Source: Geobacteraceae bacterium
GTDB lineage: Bacteria; Desulfobacterota; Desulfuromonadia; Geobacterales; Pseudopelobacteraceae
NCBI GenBank assembly: GCA_025355325.1
Contig: JANXZX010000233.1
Coordinates: 8,317-40,316, forward strand
Length of the DNA stretch: 32,000 nt
Direction: 5' to 3'
The translations under genes were made by a program, and so were the position numbers. The notes under the pieces are model-generated. The model was not told the DNA's origin. It saw nothing but the letters and a program-made list of their open reading frames with translations, and ran no database searches. Shown here one piece after another: positions 1-18,572 of the stretch. Position 1 is the first letter of the stretch; each line of letters begins with the position of its first letter.

Positions 1-39
1 CTTTTGAATTTAGAAATGTCCACGGAATTCCGGCCGGCC

Positions 40-2613
40 CTATTCTTCTGACATTCTCTTTGCAATCCAGCAGTCGCGATATATTTCATGACCTTCGGCC
101 TCACCAACGACTACACTTTCCTCAGTCCACACAACGTGCTCCCAAACTTCTTCTAGAGCATTGTTAACAGCCGAATCTAGCGACCAGGAATCTCTTGAGA
201 TTACGTCATTTTGTATTTTATCAAGCCAACGTGGCAATGCTCCTTGCTCTAATTGAAGCACAAAATCATTTACCTCAAATTCATCATCAAATTCATTTTG
301 TATTACTTCATCGTCATCATCATAAACAACATCGCCGTTATGTTGAATAATACAATCCATCTGAGATGCTTTTTGAATAAACTCTTCAAAAGATACTGTT
401 TCATCACCTAATTGACCTATTTCAAGCCCTGAATAGCTTGCGCCAAAATAGGCAAGTAAGCTGCTTTTTTTTCCTGTTAGTTGAGCCTTTGTAATTAATA
501 GTTCTTTTTGTTGCTCTGCCCACGTTTGAATACTAGAAAGTGTCACATCGGGAATTGCTTCTTTACGCGCAAGATCTTTCTGCGGTTTTGATTGTATAAT
601 ACCTGCTACTTCTCCAACAAAACCGGCATGAAGCCCTTTAACCACAGCGACTCCAATTGATGGTTTATTATATATTGATGGTTGCACGGCGCACCGACCT
701 ACTACTCGACCGCTTTCATTCTTAATCTCAGTAAAGTGTGAGTACGACTCAATCTTACCAGCAGATTCGTTTTCAAAACATCCAGGTGCAATTCTACGAA
801 TTACCTCAATCGGGGATAGCGTTAACCAGTCATTTGCTTTTACTGAACATTGGCGTACCTTCTCTCTTGTGTTAACATGAAAATCAATGTCTAGTGCCGG
901 AACGAGTCGACTACAAGCTTGGCTAAATGTTATTTTAACTGGATCGCGCCGCCAACTACCTGAATCAAAACTACAAAGAGTTTTCAATATATCTGGTGAA
1001 ATCAATACAGAAACTCGCGTGCCATGCCTTTTTAGTTTTTCTTTATCATTGGGTGTACGTAATACTGGCCGATTATTAATTCCGCAGGTAAATTCTAAGA
1101 GTAATTGCAACTCTTCACCCTTCTTTGGAACATAACGATTAGTAACAACCTGAACTTGTTCCCCCAACATGAACACAGAAAAGAACCCGATACCAAATTG
1201 CCCTATAGCTTCAAAATCTGATGCAGAAAGACCACTCCATTCGCCACGCAAGTCGGCGCTACGCCACAGAGAACGACCAAAATCAAGAAGTACCTCCGTC
1301 ATAACATACCGACTCATACCAATACCAGTATCGGTCACATGTAACCAAAACCCTTCAGGAACCTCATCTAATGCGACCTCAATTTCTCCTTCTGTCGCAC
1401 CTAGACCACCTAATGATCGGCAGGCGTGAACGGCATCCACAGCGTTTTGCAGTAATTCCCTGAGTGCAGCAGAAGGATCTTCACCATAGAGTTTTACTCC
1501 ACCAAACCTTTCTACAAGGTCTTTAATGTCTGTGACTTTGATGCTCGTATCAACAGGATACCATTCATGTGACGGCACATGCCTGGCAAAGGCTTCAGTT
1601 GAATGAGAGCCAGCAACGGATCGAGCGGAAAGACGTTGGCGGTTGTTATCCCGAAGTAACATGTCGGCAGACACAAGCTCTTTGTTTGCCAAGCAGCATG
1701 AGTCAAAGGCAAGCCACCAGGCAGACAACTCGCCATGAGGAAAAGGGCTACTTGTATAGAGCAATTCGTTTCGCGAAGTATCACGCTTGGGTTGATGAAG
1801 TCTTGCCTGAAATGACCAATGCTCTTTAGAAATACCTTGCGGATGTCTCATCAGCATCATCAGGCGCGGCGCTCGCATTGCATCAATATGGGCAGCATCA
1901 GCGGTTCGAAGTAATACTGCGATCTTGAGCATATCAACCGGCCAATTTGCCGGAGTGAGGCAGACTGGAGCAGTTATTACTTGATGGGCAAAGGACTCAA
2001 GTTCGTGAGGATACCACCAGTGACTCTCGGCAATGACACCGATAAAATGCCCGTAAGCATCGCGAATCTCGTCGTGCGGTAGCAAGTAAATACTGGTTTC
2101 ATCTGTTTCAGAAGACCATTTTGCAAAAGGAAGTTCTTTGGCTTGTTTTGGGTGGAGAACACGCAAAGTATCGAAAAGAACTGACTGAAACAGTTCTGTT
2201 CCATTTGTAAGAGCATCCAGAGCCAGACCTCTTTGTGCAGCTACATCTTGCCATTCGGTTGTTTCCTGTATTTGCTTCAAACCGCCTGGGAAAGCAGCAC
2301 GACAGTGCGCGGCATCATGGAGGAGAAATGCTCCACCAAGGACAAATGCCTCAGCTGGATTCAGATCATAGTCTGGACCTGCTATCTCGGAAGCAATTCT
2401 CCAAAGCGAGTCCACATGTGTTATGTCATGGAGCGTGAGTGACGGAAGTTCTTGCTGAATTTGCTGGAGAAGTAGAGTTACCCGCTGACGGAAATGTTTA
2501 TACGCCTCAGTGAGCAAGGAACGTGCTTCGTCAAATCCATCCTTTCTTAAATGAAAGGCATTACCCCAGAGACTAGTTTTTTCATAATCTTCCATACCTT
2601 TCAGACTCTCCAA
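40..2613 (-). CDS. HD-domain + Hsp90-like GHKL ATPase fusion protein, function unknown (candidate conflict/defence protein)
   Basis: 857-aa uninterrupted ORF (TTG at 2613; first ATG at 2595). Residues ~60-245 carry HD-type His/Asp motifs (LHDITH, FLLHDAAH, RTADAAHID). Residues 385-479 carry the Bergerat-fold boxes RELLQNAVDA (N box), DTGIGM (G1) and GQFGIGFFS (G2), close to Hsp90/HtpG IGQFGVGFYS. The C-terminal ~370 aa is unrecognised and has an acidic tail. Clearly more AT-rich than neighbouring genes. Confidence 0.8.
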   Translation of the reverse strand: MESLKGMEDYEKTSLWGNAFHLRKDGFDEARSLLTEAYKHFRQRVTLLLQQIQQELPSLTLHDITHVDSLWRIASEIAGPDYDLNPAEAFVLGGAFLLHDAAHCRAAFPGGLKQIQETTEWQDVAAQRGLALDALTNGTELFQSVLFDTLRVLHPKQAKELPFAKWSSETDETSIYLLPHDEIRDAYGHFIGVIAESHWWYPHELESFAHQVITAPVCLTPANWPVDMLKIAVLLRTADAAHIDAMRAPRLMMLMRHPQGISKEHWSFQARLHQPKRDTSRNELLYTSSPFPHGELSAWWLAFDSCCLANKELVSADMLLRDNNRQRLSARSVAGSHSTEAFARHVPSHEWYPVDTSIKVTDIKDLVERFGGVKLYGEDPSAALRELLQNAVDAVHACRSLGGLGATEGEIEVALDEVPEGFWLHVTDTGIGMSRYVMTEVLLDFGRSLWRSADLRGEWSGLSASDFEAIGQFGIGFFSVFMLGEQVQVVTNRYVPKKGEELQLLLEFTCGINNRPVLRTPNDKEKLKRHGTRVSVLISPDILKTLCSFDSGSWRRDPVKITFSQACSRLVPALDIDFHVNTREKVRQCSVKANDWLTLSPIEVIRRIAPGCFENESAGKIESYSHFTEIKNESGRVVGRCAVQPSIYNKPSIGVAVVKGLHAGFVGEVAGIIQSKPQKDLARKEAIPDVTLSSIQTWAEQQKELLITKAQLTGKKSSLLAYFGASYSGLEIGQLGDETVSFEEFIQKASQMDCIIQHNGDVVYDDDDEVIQNEFDDEFEVNDFVLQLEQGALPRWLDKIQNDVISRDSWSLDSAVNNALEEVWEHVVWTEESVVVGEAEGHEIYRDCWIAKRMSEE

Positions 2614-2657
2614 TATTCAAAAATTAATCAAGCCCATGTTTAATTATGAGACTATAG

Positions 2658-2694
2658 CAAAGACAAAAGAGGGCGCCATAAAAGGCGCCCTCTT
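2658..2694 (-). terminator. Rho-independent terminator downstream of dapL
   Basis: Perfect 11-bp stem AAGAGGGCGCC / GGCGCCCTCTT (2667-2677 and 2684-2694) with a 6-nt loop. On the minus strand it is followed by TTTTGTCTTTG. It begins 2 nt after the dapL stop codon. Confidence 0.75.
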
Positions 2695-2696
2695 CA

Positions 2697-3929
2697 CTAC
2701 TTCAAATTTTTCTTTATCCTCTCCACCGCTTCAATCACATTCTCACGATGGCCGAAGGCCGACAACCTGAAGTATCCCTCGCCGCTCGGGCCGAAACCGG
2801 AACCAGGCGTCCCGACTACGTTGCATTCATTGAGCAGCTTGTCGAAAAACTCCCAACTGGTCAACCCACCCGGCGTTTTCAGCCAGATGTATGGAGCATC
2901 CACACCGCCGAAGATCGTTACGCCTGCTTCTTTCAACCCTTCACGGATGATGCGGGCATTCTCCATGTAGTAGTCGATGATCTCTTTGGTCTGTTTCCAC
3001 CCTTCTTCACTGTACACCGCAGCAGCGGCGCGCTGGACCGGGTAGGAGGCGCCGTTGAACTTGGTGGTGGTGCGGCGCAGCCAGAGCTTGTTGAAACTGT
3101 ACTTTTCACCCGTGCTGGTGGTGCCCATCACCTCTTCCGGCACAACCACCAGGCCGCAGCGGACGCCGGTGAAGCCGGCTGTTTTGGAGAATGAGCGGAA
3201 TTCGATGGCGCACTTCTTGGCACCTTCGATCTCGTAAATGGAATGAGGAATATCAGGATTGGTGATGAACGCTTCGTATGCCGCGTCGAAGAAGATCACG
3301 GCGTCGTTGGCGTTGGCGTAATCGACCCATTTCTTCAGTTCTGCCTTGCTGGCCACGGTGCCGGTCGGGTTGTTCGGGAAGCAGAGATAGATGATGTCCA
3401 CTTTCTGGGTCGGCAGGGCCGGGATGAAGTTGTTGGCCTCGTTGCACGGCATGTAAACGATGTTCTCGTAATAGCCCTTGTCATTGGCTTCGCCGGTGCG
3501 ACCGATCATGACGTTGGTGTCGTTGTACACCGGATAAACCGGATCGCCGATGGCAACCACGTTGTCCAGGGCAAAGATATCGAGGATGTTAGCGCAGTCG
3601 CATTTGGAACCGTCAGAGATGAACATTTCTTCGGTCTTGAGGCTGACGCCCAGCGGCTTATAGGATTTCTCGATGATGGCGTTGATTAGCCAGTCATAGC
3701 CCTGCTCCGGACCGTATCCGGCAAACTGGTCGGTGGTGGCCAGATCGTCCACGGCGTCGTGGAAGGCTTTCAGAACAGCCGGGGCCAACGGACGGGTAAC
3801 ATCGCCGATGCCGAGACGAATGACTTTGGCAGCCGGGTTGGCTTCGGCGAAAGCGCGCACGCGGCGGCCGATTTCAGGGAACAAGTATCCAGCTTTGAGT
3901 TTCAGGTAGTTGTCGTTGATTTTTGCCAC
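2697..3929 (-). CDS. dapL: LL-diaminopimelate aminotransferase
   Basis: 410 aa. The N-terminus [20 protein letters not shown] and overall sequence are recognisable as DapL-type class I aminotransferase. PLP-lysine motif [11 protein letters not shown]. Clustered with dapA and dapB. Confidence 0.93.
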
Positions 3930-3963: not shown

Positions 3964-4353
3964 TCAGATTTTACTCAAAATCAATGTTTGTATTTCCAGC
4001 GCCACATCAAACGCGTGACGGGCTTCGTCGAGCGTCGGTTCGAAGCAGTCATCCGGGTAACGGACACCCACGCCGTATTCAGAAATATCCTCCAACTGTT
4101 CCTCGTATGGCAGCAGTTCCGGAACTATACCGGCCACATCAGTTAACAGCTTTACAAGATCGTGGGTTTTGGAGATATGTACGGCGTTGGCAACCAGAAC
4201 GCCTTTAAGCAGCTTCTCAATAGCCTGCTGAGCGTGGAAACAGACAGTATCGGTGGGAATGATTTCGGCATTCAGATTATTGCGAATATTCTGCAGATCG
4301 TGTTCAGCCTTGCGGAACCACTGTTGCACAATCTCTGCCGTTGCATCATCCAT
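3964..4353 (-). CDS. HEPN-domain protein, putative toxin of an MNT-HEPN (type VII-like) toxin-antitoxin pair
   Basis: 129 aa from the ATG at 4353. The track ORF extends to 4446, but that part overlaps the MNT gene. All-helical sequence with KTHDL and GVRYPDD motifs typical of small HEPN proteins. Its start overlaps the MNT stop by 8 nt. Confidence 0.7.
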   Translation of the reverse strand: MDDATAEIVQQWFRKAEHDLQNIRNNLNAEIIPTDTVCFHAQQAIEKLLKGVLVANAVHISKTHDLVKLLTDVAGIVPELLPYEEQLEDISEYGVGVRYPDDCFEPTLDEARHAFDVALEIQTLILSKI

Positions 4354-4660
4354 GCAGCAACCTGCCGTTGTGGGCAGCATCATACACGATGGTGCCGGGG
4401 ATATCACGATAACGGGCAAATTCCTGCGGGGTATAAACAAATGCATCCAGGGAGAACGAACGCAGGGGGAAAAGTCGCTTTACCGCGACATTCCGCTGGT
4501 GGGGAGTCAACTCTGAGTCCATGACAACAACCAGATCAACATCACTCTCATCGGTGGCTTTCCCATGCGCATATGAGCCAAACAGATATATCTTTTCCGG
4601 ATGCATGGTCTGAGCAATGCGTTCCTTCAATTGATCTATGTCACATGCCGAAAGAATCAA
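4346..4660 (-). CDS. Minimal nucleotidyltransferase (MNT), putative antitoxin partner of the HEPN protein
   Basis: 104 aa with the pol-beta-type signature LFGSYAHGKATDESDVDLVVV (G-S ... D-x-D). Lies immediately upstream of the HEPN gene and overlaps it. Confidence 0.8.
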   Translation of the reverse strand: MILSACDIDQLKERIAQTMHPEKIYLFGSYAHGKATDESDVDLVVVMDSELTPHQRNVAVKRLFPLRSFSLDAFVYTPQEFARYRDIPGTIVYDAAHNGRLLHG

Positions 4661-4681
4661 TTCCGACTCCTGATCAAAAGC

Positions 4682-5485
4682 TTATTTCAGCCCCAACACA
4701 TCCTGCATATCGTACAGCCCTGGCGTCTTGCCAACAACCCACTTGGCCGCACGAACGCTGCCGCGCGAGAACATGTCGCGGGTCATGGCACGGTGGGAAA
4801 TTTCGATGCGCTCACCCATGCCGATGAAATAAACCGTGTGTTCACCGACGATATCCCCACCACGAACGGTCTGCATGCCGATCTCTTCTTTCGTCCGTTC
4901 GCCGCAGATGCCTTCGCGGTGATAATTGGCGACCTTGTTGTAGTCACGCCCAAGCGCTTCGGCAACGACTTCCCCCATCCGCACTGCGGTTCCTGACGGT
5001 GAGTCTTTTTTCTTGTTATGGTGCAGTTCAACAATTTCCACATCGAAATCATCGCCCAGAGTTTTGGCGACATCTTTCAAAACCTTGAAACAGACATTGA
5101 CGCCGACCGACATATTCGGCGCCAGTACTGCCGGGATATCCTTGGTTAATTCAGAAGCAAAGGCACGTTCCTCGGGGGTAAAACCGGTAGAACCGATCAC
5201 GATCGATTTCTTGAGCAGGGCGCATACTTCCAGATTCTTCAGCGACACCTTCGGCGTTGTAAAATCAATGAGAACATCGCACCCCGCAACGACGGCATTC
5301 AGGTTGTCGGTAATAAGAACATCCTGTTTGCCGCAGCCGGCAAGAAGGGCTGCATCCTGACCGATGGCCGGGTGGCCGGGACGTTCGAGAGCTCCGCTGA
5401 ATTCAACTCCTTCAGCTTCAATAATGGAGGTAATGATGCGCTGTCCCATTCGTCCCGCAGCGCCGCATACGGCTATCTTAATCAT
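4682..5485 (-). CDS. dapB: 4-hydroxy-tetrahydrodipicolinate reductase
   Basis: ATG at 5485 (MIKIAVCGAAGRMGQ, dinucleotide-binding GxxGxxG) preceded by AAGGGG. DapB signature ELHHNKKKDSPSGTA. The track ORF start at 5527 is probably an upstream extension. Confidence 0.93.
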   Translation of the reverse strand: MIKIAVCGAAGRMGQRIITSIIEAEGVEFSGALERPGHPAIGQDAALLAGCGKQDVLITDNLNAVVAGCDVLIDFTTPKVSLKNLEVCALLKKSIVIGSTGFTPEERAFASELTKDIPAVLAPNMSVGVNVCFKVLKDVAKTLGDDFDVEIVELHHNKKKDSPSGTAVRMGEVVAEALGRDYNKVANYHREGICGERTKEEIGMQTVRGGDIVGEHTVYFIGMGERIEISHRAMTRDMFSRGSVRAAKWVVGKTPGLYDMQDVLGLK

Positions 5486-5502
5486 TGTATAACCCCTTGA
5501 TT

Positions 5503-5587
5503 CACCGCGAAGACACGAAGGACGCAAAGAAAATCTAAAAAAATATTCTCTTCAGCTTTCCTTCGTGAACTTCGTGCCTTCGTGGTG
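5503..5587. repeat. Cluster of five CACGAAG/CTTCGTG heptamer copies forming a long-range inverted repeat in the dapA-dapB spacer
   Basis: Plus strand: CACCGCGAAGACACGAAGGA (5503-5522) faces TCCTTCGTGAACTTCGTGCCTTCGTGGTG (5559-5587). A 9-bp perfect inner stem (CACGAAGGA/TCCTTCGTG) and a 10-bp outer stem with one mismatch are possible. Confidence 0.6.
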
Positions 5588-5595
5588 GATGCAAA

Positions 5596-6468
5596 TTAAA
5601 TCAGTTTATATTCCTTCATAATCGCTGTCAGCTTTGTCTTATTCGCAGCGCTCATTTCGCAGAGCGGCAGACGAACTTCGTCCGAACACTTGCCCATCAG
5701 ACCAAGAGCAGTCTTGACCGGAATCGGGTTGCTTTCGATGAACATGGCATTGCCGATTTTCAGGGTGTCCAGATGCAGCTGACGTGCCTTGGCCATATCG
5801 CCGGCAAAGAAAGCGTCAGTCAGGTCGCCGACAGTCTTTGGCATGATGTTGGCCAGCACCGATATGACACCTACAGCGCCGCAGGCCATCATCGGGAAGG
5901 TGATGAAATCGTCGCCGGAGAAGACGTCGATCTGGTTGCCGCAGAGTGCCATGACTTCCGACGCCTGCTGCAGGGAACCGGTGGCCTCTTTGATGGCAAC
6001 GATGTTCTTGTGCGGCGCAAGGCGGGCAACCGTTTCAGGGAGCAGGTTGACGCCGGTGCGGCCCGGAACGTTGTAAAGGATCTGCGGGATATCGACCGCA
6101 TCGGCAATGGCGGTGTAGTGGCGATAGAGTCCTTCCTGAGTCGGCTTGTTGTAGTAGGGTGTTACCAGCAGCACGCCGGCTACACCCAGCTCTTTTGCCT
6201 CGCGGGTAAGATTGATGGCTTCGGCTGTGGAGTTGGATCCGGTGCCGGCTATGACCGGAACTCGCCCTTTAGCCTGCTCAAAGACGATCCGGATGACGTT
6301 CAGATGCTCTTCGTTATCCAGAGTGGACGACTCGCCGGTGGTGCCGCAGGCAACGATGGCATCTGTGCCGTTCTCGATCTGGAAATCAACCAGTTCACGC
6401 AGCTTCTGCTCGTCAACCGCGCCGTTTTTAAATGGCGTCACTATTGCTACAATGCTTCCCTTGAACAT
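5596..6468 (-). CDS. dapA: 4-hydroxy-tetrahydrodipicolinate synthase
   Basis: 290 aa. Motifs GTTGES and IVAIKEATGS (catalytic Lys region). Recognisable full-length DapA. Confidence 0.95.
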   Translation of the reverse strand: MFKGSIVAIVTPFKNGAVDEQKLRELVDFQIENGTDAIVACGTTGESSTLDNEEHLNVIRIVFEQAKGRVPVIAGTGSNSTAEAINLTREAKELGVAGVLLVTPYYNKPTQEGLYRHYTAIADAVDIPQILYNVPGRTGVNLLPETVARLAPHKNIVAIKEATGSLQQASEVMALCGNQIDVFSGDDFITFPMMACGAVGVISVLANIMPKTVGDLTDAFFAGDMAKARQLHLDTLKIGNAMFIESNPIPVKTALGLMGKCSDEVRLPLCEMSAANKTKLTAIMKEYKLI

Positions 6469-7818: not shown

Positions 7819-8388
7819 ATGCCCGAAAATACGTTCCGCTGTCCGTGGTGCGGCAGTGATCCGCTCTACATGGCCTATCATGATGAAGAATGGGGGGTGC
7901 CGCTCCACAACGACATCCGGTTATTCGAAATGCTGACGCTGGAAGGGGCTCAGGCAGGGCTCTCCTGGCTTACCATTTTACGGAAGCGGGAGGGGTACCG
8001 GCGCGCATTTGCCGGATTTGATCCCCGGAAAGTTGCTGCGTTCACTGATGACGATTACGCGCGATTACTGCTTGATCCCGGCATTGTCCGCAACCGGCTC
8101 AAAATTGCCTCCACAATCACCAATGCCCGTGTGGTTCTGGAAATTCAGAGCCGATACGGCAGTCTCGATACGTACCTGTGGAGTTTTGTGAACGGAGTGC
8201 CTGTGCGCAACAGTTGGCAATCAATGAGCGATATCCCTGCCAGCACGGCGCTTTCAGACGCAATGAGCAAGGAGCTGAAACGACTTGGATTCCGTTTCGT
8301 AGGTTCAACAATCTGCTATGCCTTCATGCAGGCGACCGGAATGGTGAATGATCACCTTACTGGATGTTTCTGTTATGACGCATGCTAA
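7819..8388 (+). CDS. tag: DNA-3-methyladenine glycosylase I
   Basis: ATG at 7819 preceded by GGGGAGGAG. N-terminus MPENTFRCPWCGSDPLYMAYHDEEWGVP is the Tag zinc-snap and EWG signature. The track ORF start at 7765 is likely an extension. Confidence 0.9.
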   Translation: MPENTFRCPWCGSDPLYMAYHDEEWGVPLHNDIRLFEMLTLEGAQAGLSWLTILRKREGYRRAFAGFDPRKVAAFTDDDYARLLLDPGIVRNRLKIASTITNARVVLEIQSRYGSLDTYLWSFVNGVPVRNSWQSMSDIPASTALSDAMSKELKRLGFRFVGSTICYAFMQATGMVNDHLTGCFCYDAC

Positions 8389-15376: not shown

Positions 15377-15611
15377 TTTCACTCTCAAGGCGGGATTCAG
15401 ATAGTTCCTTCTTAAGGCGAGTATTTTCAGATTCAAGTTCAGTTACCGGCCTTCTACTCGATTATGCGTGGCCGACATCCTTTGCAGGATCACGGTAAAT
15501 CCAGTTCTTCAATGTCTTAGATGGGATGTTGAGTCGCTTTGCGGCTTCTGTTAGCTTCAAACCTGATTCCCGGATCAGCTTGACCGCTTCCTGTGGGGAA
15601 ATATACCACAT
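15377..15611 (-). pseudogene. Remnant of an IS3-family OrfA (HTH + leucine-zipper region), stop-interrupted and 3'-truncated
   Basis: Minus-strand reading from the ATG at 15611 gives MWYISPQEAVKLIRESGLKLTEAAKRLNIPSKTLKNWIYRDPAKDVGHA (HTH). An in-frame TAA follows at 15464-15462. The same frame continues [25 protein letters not shown] (IS3 OrfA zipper) and then runs into the cbiA stop codon. No OrfB or inverted repeats are present. Confidence 0.6.
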
Positions 15612-15704
15612 GTAGGTGTCCACTAATTTCTTACCACGTCACAGTTGGATGGCATTCACGAATTTACATCGGAGTTCGTTTCAAACAAGTGTTATAAATA
15701 GTTA

Positions 15705-15729
15705 TACCATGATTTTTGAAAGCATGGTA
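15705..15729 (+). promoter_or_regulatory. 7-bp inverted repeat TACCATG-N11-CATGGTA upstream of the NTase-fold gene (possible operator)
   Basis: Read directly at 15705-15711 and 15723-15729. It lies 27 nt upstream of the ATG at 15756, whose RBS is AAGGAGG (15741-15747). Confidence 0.3.
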
Positions 15730-15755
15730 CAGCTGGAGGCAAGGAGGAATGACTT

Positions 15756-16838
15756 ATGTACGAAATAGATATCCAAACTCAAACACTTTATGCGGAACTG
15801 ATTGATCTTTTACAGATTGTGGAAGCATCAAGAACCATAGCCAGCTTGAAAGGATCATTTTCGATCAAGGAAAACAAAGGGGAGGAATACGTTTATTTTC
15901 GTGCCTATAATCCGAGCGGTCAGCTAGAGGAATTGTATATTGGCCCCCGTAACGAGCAGACAGAACAGCTTATGCGTGACCATGCAGCCGGTAAGCCGGA
16001 CGTTATGGAAATGGGAGAAAAGCTCAAACGCCTCAGTCTCCAAATTCAAGCTGGCATCAAACAGCCAACCGACAAGGCCATGACGCGAGTGATCCGAAGC
16101 CTTGCAGATGCAGGGGTATTCAGGAATGGCGGGGTGCTGGTAGGCACACATGCTTTTCAGGCCGCAGGGCTTATGCTAGGTGTAACTTGGGCACCTGAAA
16201 CAACAAGAACAATTGACGTTGATTTAGCCATAGAGCGTAAAATATCCGTAGCAATACCAATGATTGATTCAGATATCCCAGCAGCACTCAACAGCCTCGA
16301 AATGGGTTTTTATCCAGTACCTAAATTGAACCATAAAGACCCTTCAACGAACTTTGCAATCCGTAAAAGTCAGCTTCGGTTAGATGTATTAACGCCGAAA
16401 ACTAAAGAGTCAGATTCTCCGGTATTTATCAAGCGGTTTAATTGTGCCGCCGAACCTCTCAGCTATCTATCTTATGTAATAGAAAAACCCTCTGTTTCGG
16501 TATTGTTGGACACTACACCTGTATTAATAAACATCCCACAGCCGGTACGATATGCCATGCATAAGCTGATCGTTTCACAGGTTAGAGATGCAACGAGTGC
16601 CGCAAAGCGGTCAAAGGATTTGTACCAAGCACATCAAATTTTATCGCTACTACAGGAACAACGACCTTTTGACATCCAACCGGCATGGGAAAATCTCATA
16701 AAGCGCGGCCCTAAGTGGGAAAAATACGCAGAGATAGGACTAGCGGCAATGGGAAATCTCTATGGAAAGCTGGACACACCATTAATTGCCACTCCAATCA
16801 CACCGAAAGTTGAAAAGAAGAAAATCCGGGGGCGATAG
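15756..16838 (+). CDS. Orphan nucleotidyltransferase-fold protein (MNT/AbiEii-like superfamily; possibly the family NCBI names GSU2403-type)
   Basis: 360 aa with a strong RBS. Pol-beta-type motif GGVLVGTHAFQAAG ... TIDVDLAI (residues 125-158). Has a ~110-aa N-terminal extension and a helical C-terminal region (RYAMHKLIVSQVR ... KRSKDLYQAHQIL). AT-richer than core genes. No adjacent partner ORF. Confidence 0.8.
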   Translation: MYEIDIQTQTLYAELIDLLQIVEASRTIASLKGSFSIKENKGEEYVYFRAYNPSGQLEELYIGPRNEQTEQLMRDHAAGKPDVMEMGEKLKRLSLQIQAGIKQPTDKAMTRVIRSLADAGVFRNGGVLVGTHAFQAAGLMLGVTWAPETTRTIDVDLAIERKISVAIPMIDSDIPAALNSLEMGFYPVPKLNHKDPSTNFAIRKSQLRLDVLTPKTKESDSPVFIKRFNCAAEPLSYLSYVIEKPSVSVLLDTTPVLINIPQPVRYAMHKLIVSQVRDATSAAKRSKDLYQAHQILSLLQEQRPFDIQPAWENLIKRGPKWEKYAEIGLAAMGNLYGKLDTPLIATPITPKVEKKKIRGR

Positions 16839-17034
16839 TAAACGGCCTGATTTTATCAGTAAATTTGCGGAAAACCACGGCGTTCAGTGTGGGGATGTAG
16901 AAAAAAGTCTTAGTCTGGTGTCTGGCTGCTGCTCTACATACTGTCAACCGGCTCTGACCCGAATATGTAGCCTCCATAAGAAAGTAAAAACAAAATCCGT
17001 ATCAAGCGATGACCCGAGGATTGGCGATTATGTT

Positions 17035-17074
17035 GATATGACCTGGAGGGGCTGAAGAAATTGATGAGGGATGA
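17035..17074. repeat. Left copy of an imperfect direct repeat flanking the vapBC-like cassette
   Basis: GATATGAC-N7-GGCTGAAGAAATTGATGAGGGATGA. The 25-nt core at 17050-17074 matches 17844-17868 with one mismatch. Confidence 0.75.
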
Positions 17075-17110
17075 GGGATGAGGGATGAGGGATGAGGGAT
17101 GAGGGATGAG
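17063..17110. repeat. Heptanucleotide tandem repeat (GATGAGG) x6 plus one variant copy
   Basis: Six perfect GATGAGG units at 17063-17104, followed by GATGAGT. Confidence 0.95.
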
Positions 17111-17141
17111 TAGAGGCGCGGTCTCAGACCCGCCCTGGTGG

Positions 17142-17511
17142 TCAACAGCCTTGAACTGAAAGGGATGAAATGCCTGAAAAATGGGAATTATTGTTTATTA
17201 TCAGCGCGTTACGGCACATAGCTGTTGCTCCAATAATTGCATCCGGAATTTTGAGGCGGTGCTTTGTGCGCAAAAACAAGACCTTTTCAGCCAAATCGCC
17301 ATCGCGTGTCAACGGCACTATGTCAACCCTCGAACAAAATTGTTTGAAATATTTTCGGTTTTCATCGGTCAAGCCGTCAAAGACAAGGAACTCCAGGTAT
17401 GTAACAACCGAAATGCCAACATACGCAGCTGTTTCCAGCTTGGTTGCCAGCTGTTGGTTTACCGTTCAATAACGATACTGCGGCATTGGTGTCGAGCACA
17501 AAGCTTACCAC
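17142..17511 (-). pseudogene. vapC: PIN-domain VapC-like toxin, disrupted by a 1-nt frameshift
   Basis: The GTG at 17511 overlaps the antitoxin stop. That frame reads VVSFVLDTNAAVSLLNGKP and then becomes nonsense. The adjacent frame, open from 17465, reads NQQLATKLETAAYVGISVVTYLELLVFDGLTDENRKYF and continues into the track ORF 17142-17372 (KIPDAIIGATA, a PIN acidic residue). The shift maps to about 17450-17465. Confidence 0.7.
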
Positions 17512-17714
17512 TCATCGCGCAGACTCCGCTGGAATGCAACGGCATCACCCTTCCAGTTCAGAGTGCCACACAGGTCACTGAAGCGATAGGATAAGTCAGT
17601 TTTTCTGTTGGCAGCCTTTCTGGTGAGCAAAAACTGGAAAAAATCCCGGATCTCGCGGCGCTCGGTGACAGGGAGCTGCGACAGGTCAAGCATGTTATCT
17701 ATTGAGCGTGGCAT
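17505..17714 (-). CDS. vapB: VapB-like antitoxin (DUF2281-like)
   Basis: 69 aa. LPVTERREIRDFFQFLLTRK and the C-terminal GTLNWKGDAVAFQRSLRDEW are typical of this antitoxin type. Overlaps the PIN gene start. Confidence 0.7.
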   Translation of the reverse strand: MPRSIDNMLDLSQLPVTERREIRDFFQFLLTRKAANRKTDLSYRFSDLCGTLNWKGDAVAFQRSLRDEW

Positions 17715-17829
17715 ACTTATGCCTCCTGTTTTGTTGGTGGAATTTCGTTAGCACATGTGCCGGATGATGGCAAGATTTGAAGCAAAATTGATCCGGTTCA
17801 TTCCGGCTGGGTGCTGGAGCGGACCGGGA

Positions 17830-17868
17830 GATATGACTTGAATGGCTGAAGAAATTGATTAGGGATGA
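17830..17868. repeat. Right copy of the imperfect direct repeat flanking the vapBC-like cassette
   Basis: GATATGAC-N6-GGCTGAAGAAATTGATTAGGGATGA, followed by a degenerate AGGATGAGG. Core spacing to the left copy is 794 bp. Confidence 0.75.
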
Positions 17869-17971
17869 ATATACTGATCAAGGATGAGGTCATGGCCGCT
17901 TAAAATTAGACTTCTGACCAAAACAAGATCAACAAAAGTAACGAAGCTAAACAGGTTCGACGAAAGGTTCC

Positions 17972-18009
17972 AAAAATCAAAAAGGGGCTACGGTAAAAAC
18001 CGTAACCCC
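17972..18009 (-). terminator. Rho-independent terminator of tRNA-Arg
   Basis: Stem GGGGCTACGG / CCGTAACCCC (17984-17993 and 18000-18009, one mismatch). On the minus strand it is followed by TTTTTGATTTTTGG. Starts 9 nt after the tRNA 3' end. Confidence 0.7.
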
Positions 18010-18018
18010 TTGAATGAT

Positions 18019-18095
18019 TGGTGCGCCTGGAGCGATTCGAACGCCCGACCTACGGATTCGTAGTCCGTTGCTCTATCCAGCTGAGCTACAAGCGC
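18019..18095 (-). tRNA. tRNA-Arg (anticodon ACG), CCA encoded
   Basis: Minus-strand sequence GCGCTTGTAGCTCAGCTGGATAGAGCAACGGACTACGAATCCGTAGGTCGGGCGTTCGAATCGCTCCAGGCGCACCA. It folds by hand into a cloverleaf: 7-bp acceptor stem, GCTC/GAGC D stem, ACGGA/TCCGT anticodon stem with loop CTACGAA, and a T arm with TTCGAAT. Confidence 0.95.
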
Positions 18096-18107
18096 ATTGG
18101 AACGATC

Positions 18108-18136
18108 TTTATAGCGCACCATTTTGAATATATCAA
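18108..18136 (-). promoter_or_regulatory. Sigma-70-type promoter of tRNA-Arg
   Basis: Minus strand: TTGATA (18136-18131), a 17-nt spacer, TATAAA (18113-18108). The -10 element ends 12 nt upstream of the mature tRNA 5' end. Confidence 0.5.
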
Positions 18137-18227
18137 CTCTTTTTTGAATTTTACCTTTGTATACATCCCTAATCTGTTTTCTCCTATCCTATAATTGTGT
18201 TTTCAGATATTCTCAAACACGGAGTAA

Positions 18228-18572
18228 ATGACCGGTATTTTTGAAGGTTTAATCATGGATCACTTTATCATTGAAATAAGCGAAGCGGATATTAAACGGG
18301 AGCGGGATAAATCGAGAGAGCTTCGTAACAGCCGCTGGTGGAAAAATCGTGTGGCCCAGGGGCACTGCCATTACTGCGGTGGGAGCTTTCTGCCGGAAGA
18401 GTTGACCATGGACCATCTGGTGCCGGTCTCACGCGGAGGAAAAGCTTCTCGCAATAATGTGGTTCCAGCTTGCAAAGAGTGCAACAGCCGTAAAAAATAT
18501 CTGCTCCCGATGGAGTGGGAAGAATATCTGGGCAAGATTGAGAGTCCGGAGTCGGAGCCGTCTGGTGAATGA
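18228..18572 (+). CDS. Small HNH endonuclease-family protein
   Basis: 114 aa (alternative ATG at 18255). HNH motif CHYCGGSF ... DHLVPVSRGG ... NVVPACKECNSRK. Confidence 0.8.
   Translation: MTGIFEGLIMDHFIIEISEADIKRERDKSRELRNSRWWKNRVAQGHCHYCGGSFLPEELTMDHLVPVSRGGKASRNNVVPACKECNSRKKYLLPMEWEEYLGKIESPESEPSGE

Follow-up and report, generated by a model that had tools for sequence, protein, structure and literature searches.

Is the solitary, compositionally aberrant gene that adjoins dapL in a Geobacteraceae bacterium a biological conflict system and, if so, of what kind? The stretch of DNA analyzed here (hereinafter the window) comprises the full 32,000 nucleotides between positions 8,317 and 40,316 of contig JANXZX010000233.1 (assembly GCA_025355325.1), and the list of its open reading frames (ORFs) has a lone minus-strand ORF at 40..2613, of 857 residues when counted from a TTG codon. 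An initial annotation, made from the sequence alone, had proposed that this ORF joins an HD phosphohydrolase to a GHKL ATPase of Hsp90 flavor, and that it could be an undescribed defense system consisting of one gene or of several genes cut off by the window edge. We find this proposal to be partly supported: it was right in kind and a role in defense gains support, but the system is not undescribed, as the N-terminal domain corresponds to the Pfam family HD-CE and more than 1500 homologues are recovered at 90% clustering (E ≤ 1e-5). Going by these matches, the protein belongs to a large family that is already named in Pfam, and for which a computational prediction of anti-phage immunity reportedly exists, rather than to a new kind of system. 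On balance, we lean towards it being a self-contained one-gene anti-phage or anti-mobile-element module of the HD-CE/Hsp90-module class, in which an Hsp90-like switch would gate a nucleotide-degrading HD domain. This reading draws its support from the invariance of the catalytic residues, the foreign composition of the gene, the defense genes that neighbor its relatives, its position as an insert at a variable site, and a gradient of conservation along the protein.

Architecture and conservation of the HD-CE/Hsp90-like protein

The most likely start of the gene is not the TTG at 2613 but the ATG at 2595, because public gene calls use the latter, homologues align from its residue 1, and a GGAG is located 12 nt upstream of it. 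The coding sequence of the HD-CE/Hsp90-like fusion accordingly occupies 40..2595 of the minus strand, with its stop codon at 40–42, and specifies 851 residues. An identical 851-residue product is called on two public Logan contigs (L001 and L002; 2.7–2.8 kb), the database protein P0001 is 100% identical to the window protein, and the exact 857-residue product has no database record, nor do the DapL and DapA products. The 857-residue ORF itself and the six motifs earlier quoted from it are all present, namely LHDITH (61–66), FLLHDAAH (96–103), RTADAAHID (236–244), RELLQNAVDA (385–394), DTGIGM (428–433) and GQFGIGFFS (471–479). These positions are counted in the 857-residue ORF; those given below refer to the 851-residue product unless the longer ORF is named.

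Residues 56–313 of the 857-residue ORF (1675..2448, minus strand) match the Pfam HD-CE family (PF24391) with 164.6 bits as against a cut-off of 27 (E 4.6e-48), and the match extends over model positions 1–261 of 263. At E ≤ 1 this is the sole HD family matched, with the generic Pfam HD family giving no match. The predicted ligands of a binuclear metal center are H60, H93-D94, H148, H192 and D233, with an HDxxH motif among them. All of these, along with H97, are invariant across the 49 full-length homologues, 46–66% identical, that form our conservation set, and the same ligand residues, H97 excepted, are also invariant in 33 further loci. An AlphaFold2 (AF2) model of residues 1–350 is all-helical, with a predicted local distance difference test (pLDDT) score of 88. 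A profile of the HD region retrieves nothing from the PDB sequences at E ≤ 10, Foldseek searches with the model find nothing significant among the viral structures of BFVD, and neither SAMHD1 nor a dGTPase is among its top 50 fold matches. The nucleotide-degrading activity of the HD-CE domain is a prediction. Reportedly, Nicastro et al. in 2023 named Calcineurin-CE, HD-CE and PRTase-CE as nucleotide-degrading effectors by computational prediction. CE denotes conflict effector, and the definition of these effector families is attributed to Nicastro, Burroughs, Iyer and Aravind 2023 (Nucleic Acids Res 51:11479; cited in PMC12871103). For the sister effector domain Calcineurin-CE, the depletion of dNTPs in defense has been demonstrated experimentally (PMC12871103).

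The second part of the protein begins with a Bergerat ATP-binding N-domain of the Hsp90 type (residues 365–545; 961..1503, minus strand), identified by PDB profile matches and motifs. It displays an N box with E380, N384 and D387, a G1 box of the form D422-G-x-G426, a lid of the length seen in Hsp90, and a G2 box, G465-QFGIGF. E380, N384, D387, D422, G424, G426 and the stretch G465–G470 are invariant in the 49 homologues, and thus the catalytic Glu, the Asn that binds Mg, the Asp that binds adenine and the glycine boxes are all retained. Thus, both residue pairs that the initial annotation singled out for mutagenesis, H99/D100 and E386/N390 in the numbering of the longer ORF (H93/D94 and E380/N384 here), proved to be invariant across the family. 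When the profile of the 49 homologues was run against all PDB sequences, 151 matches were obtained at E ≤ 1, and the best 60 of these 151 are all members of the Hsp90 family, i.e., endoplasmin/GRP94, yeast and human Hsp90, TRAP1 and HtpG. The top match (E 5e-18) extends across residues 371–547 and includes the lid between the DxGxG and GQFGxGF motifs. Together with the Pfam HD-CE match, these profile matches and the fold matches given below bear out the proposed fusion of an HD phosphohydrolase to an Hsp90-flavored GHKL ATPase.

The more precise placement of the ATPase leads away from MORC and paraMORC, which the initial annotation had cited as GHKL ATPases that recur in conflict systems. MORC-type GHKL proteins possess an S5-fold domain with a GhXhhpXXRhl motif (Iyer et al. 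2008). The profile and fold matches listed are all to the Hsp90 family, with no MutL or MORC among them, and the Pfam model HATPase_c_3 (residues 382–492) barely passes, with 27.6 bits against a cut-off of 25; the nearest relatives are rather Hsp90, GRP94 and TRAP1. An orthologous relationship to the Hsp90/HtpG chaperones was rejected: the NCBIfam HSP90 and HtpG models align only with the N-domain, at 57.4 versus 371 and 67.3 versus 455 bits, far below their equivalog cut-offs. Sacsin was also considered and set aside, as the Pfam SACS and NCBIfam sacsin matches are weak and those to the SACS models fall below their cut-offs.

For the remaining residues 546–851 (43..960, minus strand) there is no sequence-level match in PDB or Pfam, and about 370 residues after the ATPase boxes had previously been left unassigned. 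A full AF2 model built from the homologue alignment (pLDDT 85; predicted template-modeling score, pTM, 0.75) retrieves full-length Hsp90, TRAP1 and GRP94 structures in Foldseek with probability 1.0 over 373–571 alignment columns (most over 430–530), with a template-modeling score of up to 0.57 when normalized to TRAP1 fragments comprising the N and middle domains. On this model, residues ~365–851 constitute an Hsp90-type module of N-domain and middle domain. By the fold search, the C-terminal third is therefore Hsp90-middle-like and not a new domain. This region contains an internal acidic loop and shows the lowest conservation within the protein. The loop corresponds to the acidic run earlier taken for a tail; it lies at residues 764–781 of 857 and is followed in the model by about 75 structured residues. 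R677, within a DLARK motif and invariant in the 49 homologues, is a candidate for the catalytic-loop arginine, which we liken to that of the NLSRE loop of Hsp90. The HD core and the ATPase N-domain have mean pairwise identities of 63% and 67%, whereas residues 546–700 reach only 42% and residues 701–851 only 34%, a gradient that is to be expected if constrained catalytic parts are combined with a diversifying C-terminal surface.

The family has a fixed architecture. Among 120 homologues listed, all show the same Pfam domains and most have 838–904 residues, with four of 622–715 residues. With only the HD region as query, 1.84 billion sequence representatives (50% identity) yielded 1264 matches at E ≤ 1e-3, 741 of them at E ≤ 1e-30. 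Approximately 120 of the best 150 of these 1264 are proteins of 830–934 residues with the HD domain at residues 1–350, and the ~30 that are shorter probably owe their length to truncated contigs and are fragments. On account of this shared length and HD position, the HD-CE subtype appears to be nearly always fused to the Hsp90-like module. The family is scattered in a patchy fashion over Proteobacteria, Desulfobacterota, Actinobacteria and Verrucomicrobia, with hosts including Desulfurivibrionaceae, Geobacter, Gallionella, Thiobacillus, Azonexus, Acidovorax, Burkholderia, Pseudomonas, Stenotrophomonas, Buttiauxella, Thiocystis, Methylobacter, Solirubrobacterales and Chthoniobacterales. Two copies are possibly disrupted or pseudogenized: that of Pseudomonas sp. 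P2757 (L035, 10001–11050) has an in-frame stop within the HD region, while the match in Methylobacter luteus (L046, 10001–13610) spans 3.6 kb as compared to the usual 2.6 kb, with the strong alignment stopping at residue 512.

The insertion site downstream of dapL

The composition of the gene is foreign to its host. It has 43.9% GC and 33% GC at third codon positions (GC3), whereas the remaining window has 51.8% GC, and dapL, dapB, dapA and eight other genes of the window show a GC3 of 55–74%; it is also the lowest-GC 2.6-kb stretch of the window. The G/C counts that had originally raised the claim of foreignness are exact (18 of 60 bases in 241–300, as against 34 of 60 in 3061–3120), and the GC3 values confirm it. 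Acquisition by horizontal transfer is a component of the explanation that we favor as a whole, and we give it the same cautious preference.

Distinct regulatory elements border the gene on both sides. On the right, an intrinsic terminator of dapL (2666..2695, minus strand) with a 12-bp stem containing 8 GC pairs folds at -24.6 kcal/mol (z -5.9), and the gene begins just past it, as the initial annotation had noted, at a distance of about 70 nt. The intervening segment at 2596..2665 (minus strand) provides the upstream untranslated sequence and a presumed promoter; a scan of it for the sigma-70 consensus gave no match. On the left, the 3′ untranslated region occupies 1..39 (minus strand), and bases 1–5 form the end of a 10-bp hairpin that begins 20 bases to the left of position 1. 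Contigs L001 and L002 supply its full sequence, a GC hairpin of the form AAAGGCGGCC GATT GGCCGCCTTT, located 35 nt past the stop codon and folding at -23 kcal/mol. An exact 51-nt scan of the Joint Genome Institute (JGI) metagenomes for the left flank gave no match. One end of both L001 and L002 falls within the 3′ part of dapL and the other coincides with the hairpin; these breakpoints could fit either strain-level presence and absence of the insert or low coverage.

The 25-nt hairpin AAAGGCGGCCGATTGGCCGCCTTTT furnishes a handle on what the site looks like in relatives. At least 120 exact matches to it occur among JGI metagenome contigs (L065–L184), and the window has no second copy; given this abundance, we no longer treated it as marking the insertion site uniquely, as it is not specific by itself. 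Seven of the hairpin contigs also match dapL, six of them over its full or nearly full length with 90–95% protein identity and L102 over 53 residues of its 3′ end (85%), and the information lies solely in this joint occurrence of hairpin and dapL. In L098 (6088–8704) and L135, 10 nt separate the hairpin from the dapL stop, and the hairpin is at the same time the end of a convergent gene for a 439-residue Orn/DAP-decarboxylase (lysA-like), an arrangement that, judged by sequence comparison, is the empty site. In the others, diverse cargo lies between dapL and the hairpin: a pair of minimal nucleotidyltransferase (MNT) and HepT genes, a GGDEF gene and an M23 peptidase gene in L143 and L111, insertion-sequence transposases in L102, and about 5 kb of other genes in L096 and L116. 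In the window, this interval has the HD/Hsp90 gene alone along with a different hairpin that now terminates dapL, i.e., one distinct from that following dapL in the empty-site relatives L098 and L135.

By this comparison, the gene is an approximately 2.7-kb single-gene insert at a locally variable site or hotspot, and a partner in the same operon further leftward is therefore unlikely. This revises the notion of a foreign patch extending past the left end of the window, as the hairpin stands a mere 35 nt past the stop codon and the same hairpin, in relatives, is found 10 nt from dapL at the end of a convergent gene. An edge-truncated multi-gene system is, on the same grounds of the hairpin and the empty-site relatives, unlikely. 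The occupied sites downstream of dapL have a second small palindrome, similar to CCGGAATTCCGG, after the 25-nt hairpin, and over the 34 nt that follow this hairpin the window and L102 share 91% identity, though their cargo differs. In the window, the stretch in question comprises positions 1–33 together with the 20 nt to their left. The 25-nt hairpin may be no more than a recurrent terminator, or it may mark where a repeat or mobile element ends.

Genomic neighborhoods of the relatives and other features of the window

To seek partner genes, we clustered the flanking ORFs of 46 loci encoding homologues, and found no partner gene common to more than a handful of them. In most loci the nearest neighbors are at least 100 nt away or on the other strand, and the gene is a solo transcription unit, which upholds the earlier suggestion of a one-gene system. 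The survey of neighborhoods recommended by the initial annotation also turned out in favor of a defense association, with a patchy distribution, no conserved core synteny and frequent known defense neighbors. These include Mokosh MkoA with an OLD nuclease, Hachiman HamB, a type I restriction enzyme and PDC-S06, as well as a TIR protein that neighbors the homologue on the Zymomonas plasmid pZMOB03. At a Burkholderia locus, PDC-S46 lies 28 nt downstream of the homologue, with Borvo nearby. RhuM, AbiEii, Fic, PLD and Csy4 are found among 133 nearer neighbor ORFs; the PADLOC scan of these via an alignment is dominated by redundant PDC-S05 models and serves for counts only. A defense-type neighbor is present at 12 of the ~23 distinct loci with at least one neighbor scanned individually, a proportion to be read as a tally and not as a formal measure of enrichment.

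The one recurrent linkage is to IetAS, which, as reported by Gao et al. in 2020, is said to consist of an AAA ATPase, IetA, and an S8 protease, IetS. IetA and IetS (PADLOC E 1e-142 and 5e-282) occur directly upstream of homologues in five independent contexts, and among ~50 loci tested only those of this clade have them. The resulting cassettes have the order IetA (329 residues)–IetS (870–918 residues)–HD-CE/Hsp90 (851–857 residues), the third gene starting after a gap of 8 nt (L003 6267–12574; L004 6252–12571; L006 6264–12562; L058 4264–10556; L063 2297–8592). The recurrence of the cassette in five unrelated contexts suggests that some IetAS systems may be three-component. Just upstream of the cassette in L006, within a nif/anf region, a gene for DRAT, a dinitrogenase reductase ADP-ribosyltransferase (4302–6089), is apparently split into pieces of 248 and 50 residues by a HEPN-like/MNT pair. 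In a neighbor-joining tree, the window protein forms a group with P0002–P0004, to which the IetAS-linked clade is the sister. Of the members of this group, P0004 is the copy adjacent to an ABC-3C pair: in L060 (398–5013), a MC6/MC8 middle component and a DUF2326 ABC ATPase are encoded 26 nt upstream of this 66%-identical homologue.

Two further regions of the window have features of mobile or toxin–antitoxin type. At 3964–4660 (minus strand), overlapping ORFs code for a HEPN protein (160 residues, Pfam E 4e-25) and a minimal nucleotidyltransferase (104 residues), a pair of the toxin–antitoxin type that sits between dapL and dapB, inside the dap cluster. The MNT/HepT pair of L143 and L111 is on the opposite side of dapL from this pair. 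A second low-GC patch (~15400–18400, 44–47% GC) with small unassigned ORFs contains, at 15756–16838 (plus strand), an ORF for a 360-residue nucleotidyltransferase of the NTP_transf_8 family (PF12281, E 2e-55), and is directly adjoined by a tRNA-Arg(ACG) gene at 18019–18095 (minus strand). As this low-GC patch abuts a tRNA gene, its sequence suggests a second small integrated islet.

Proposed function, rival explanations and known systems

For the HD-CE/Hsp90-like protein we posit a mode of action whose trigger, gating, oligomeric state and substrate we infer. In the resting state, the Hsp90-like module would keep the HD active site inactive. The variable middle/C-terminal surface would then bind an infection cue, most plausibly a phage protein, by analogy to the binding of clients by Hsp90, and the binding and hydrolysis of ATP would bring about a rearrangement of clamp and lid of the kind typical of Hsp90 and its fellow GHKL ATPases. 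This might free the HD domain or pair it with that of a second copy, whereupon it would hydrolyze phosphate linkages in free nucleotides (dNTP, NTP or NAD-type pools), resulting in a halt of replication and an aborted infection. More tentatively, we raise the possibility that the Hsp90-like clamp has been repurposed as an immune receptor that recognizes phage "clients" by its fast-evolving middle/C-terminal surface and licenses a nucleotide-destroying HD enzyme, with one clade additionally wired to IetA/IetS, so that IetAS would there have three components; in outline, this idea has been predicted before. If true, chaperone machinery, and not STAND NTPases alone, could act as a pattern-recognition switch in prokaryotic immunity, and the HD enzyme would be a further member of an expanding group of effectors that deplete nucleotides. 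At a compact 2.7 kb, bordered by regulatory elements of its own and free of partner genes, the window copy is directly clonable and offers a minimal test case, in which mutants of H99/D100 and E386/N390 would strike invariant residues.

Several observations weigh against the proposal of a self-contained defense module. Plasmids carry only two full-length copies and phage genomes none; PHROGs give one weak match, to the ATPase region only. No C-terminal dimerization domain of the Hsp90 type was recognized, as residues 545–851 lack a sequence match and the lengths of the Foldseek alignments fit the N and middle domains only; indeed, the trigger and the oligomeric state are matters that we purely infer. 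The HD model has no significant solved structural relative in Foldseek searches of the PDB, its best matches (E 0.18) being class I cyclic-nucleotide phosphodiesterases. The literature searched contains no experiment on any HD-CE/Hsp90 family member, and the family is not represented among the models of PADLOC-DB 2.0, which yields only weak matches to TmtA. A fully annotated locus in Pseudomonas chlororaphis is without a defense neighbor, about half of the large neighbors scanned gave no PADLOC match, and the left flank of the window gene is known for only 20 nt beyond the window, from L001 and L002.

How do other explanations fare against the same evidence? HD nucleases exist, and the HD domain might be one that acts on phage or host DNA or RNA, akin to the HD domain of Cas3, under the control of a DNA-clamping GHKL ATPase as in paraMORC/Shedu. 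For want of a significant solved relative, the structure search does not fix whether the HD substrate is a nucleotide or a nucleic acid, and a GHKL–nuclease fusion, VcSduA, is a validated direct-restriction defense that needs both its ATPase and its nuclease residues (PMC12137116). We nevertheless deem a nuclease unlikely: the Pfam family is that of a "conflict effector" HD, for which Nicastro et al. reportedly predicted free nucleotides as the target, the weak top fold matches are nucleotide phosphodiesterases rather than Cas3, the Pfam scans detect no nucleic-acid-binding domain in the protein, and the ATPase resembles Hsp90, which handles protein clients, and not the DNA clamps of the MutL/MORC/GyrB type.

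Still less probable, in our estimate, is that the protein is a subunit of a multi-gene system of the IetAS or ABC-3C type, with the window copy being an orphan or inactive, or having its partners past the left edge. The sister-clade gene is always third in its IetA–IetS cassette, the closest clade includes the copy that follows an ABC-3C pair by 26 nt, and the Burkholderia copy precedes PDC-S46 by 28 nt, all of which speak for partners. The IetAS and ABC-3C partners, however, are situated upstream, where the window has dapL and its terminator, and tblastn with PADLOC-confirmed queries finds neither IetA nor IetS in the window. The hairpin after the stop codon, which abuts the convergent lysA-like gene in the empty-site relatives, the confinement of IetA/IetS to a single clade with no other partner recurring, and the fully intact catalytic residues, which give no sign of decay, likewise run counter to a missing or lost partner. 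A non-immune accessory role, for instance as an Hsp90 paralogue coupling proteostasis or stress sensing to the turnover of cyclic nucleotides or (p)ppGpp, strikes us as quite improbable. It would accord with cyclic-nucleotide phosphodiesterases being the top (non-significant) fold matches of the HD domain, with some loci lying amid housekeeping and two-component genes, and with the GGDEF gene present in the window, but it sits poorly with the patchy phyletic distribution, the foreign composition, the lack of conserved synteny alongside recurrent defense and toxin–antitoxin adjacency, the variability of the putative sensor region, and scores far below the HtpG/HSP90 equivalog cut-offs.

The favored reading, that of a one-gene module with an Hsp90-like switch and an HD-CE effector, finds its closest class among the conflict systems with HSP90 modules. 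Nicastro et al. in 2023 are said to have reported systems in which CE effectors are coupled to modules related to HSP90 and HSP70, as counterparts of STAND and GTPase switches. In common with that class, the window protein has an HD-CE domain fused to an Hsp90-related ATPase and belongs to a family with a variable, defense-rich context; it differs in being solo and bounded by terminators. With the Hsp90 chaperones themselves (HtpG, Hsp82, TRAP1, GRP94), it shares the ExxxNxxD, DxGxG and GQFG(I/V)GF(F/Y)S motifs, the lid, and the fold of the N and middle domains, but unlike them it has a 350-residue HD enzyme at its N-terminus, and its gene is accessory and mobile rather than core. The likeness to IetAS is that of a sister-clade homologue serving as the third gene of the cassette, whereas the window is devoid of IetA and IetS and its protein is unrelated to both. 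Tiamat TmtA, which Millman et al. in 2022 reportedly described as a single-gene defense with a sacsin/Hsp90-like ATPase, is the only PADLOC family matched, via the G2 box and N-domain. These matches (E 3e-4 to 4e-3; the best 3.1e-4 at 16.9 bits) extend over only 30–106 residues of models with 1302–1782 positions, and the TmtA models are without an HD-CE domain; with no full-length TmtA match, membership in Tiamat was rejected.

On the effector side, PUA-Cal-HAD with its Calcineurin-CE domain (PMC12871103) and the dGTPase/SAMHD1 enzymes provide parallels for a sensor-triggered phosphoesterase that collapses nucleotide pools. By its sequence, the window protein has the HDxxH motif in common with SAMHD1 and the phosphodiesterases, while Calcineurin-CE is of a different fold and PUA-Cal-HAD uses a PUA sensor in place of the Hsp90-like ATPase seen here. 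On the side of overall organization, VcSduA, a Shedu type I-D (paraMORC3) protein, combines a GHKL ATPase with a PD-(D/E)xK nuclease in a validated single-gene defense in which both activities are required (PMC12137116). Its DUF4263 effector is C-terminal and its ATPase MORC-like, as opposed to the N-terminal HD effector and Hsp90-like ATPase of the window protein, which gives no Pfam or PADLOC match to the DUF4263 PD-(D/E)xK domain and has no sequence kinship with VcSduA past the Bergerat fold. By analogy of design, a GHKL ATPase and a hydrolytic effector in one polypeptide, we consider VcSduA the nearest validated analogue in logic.

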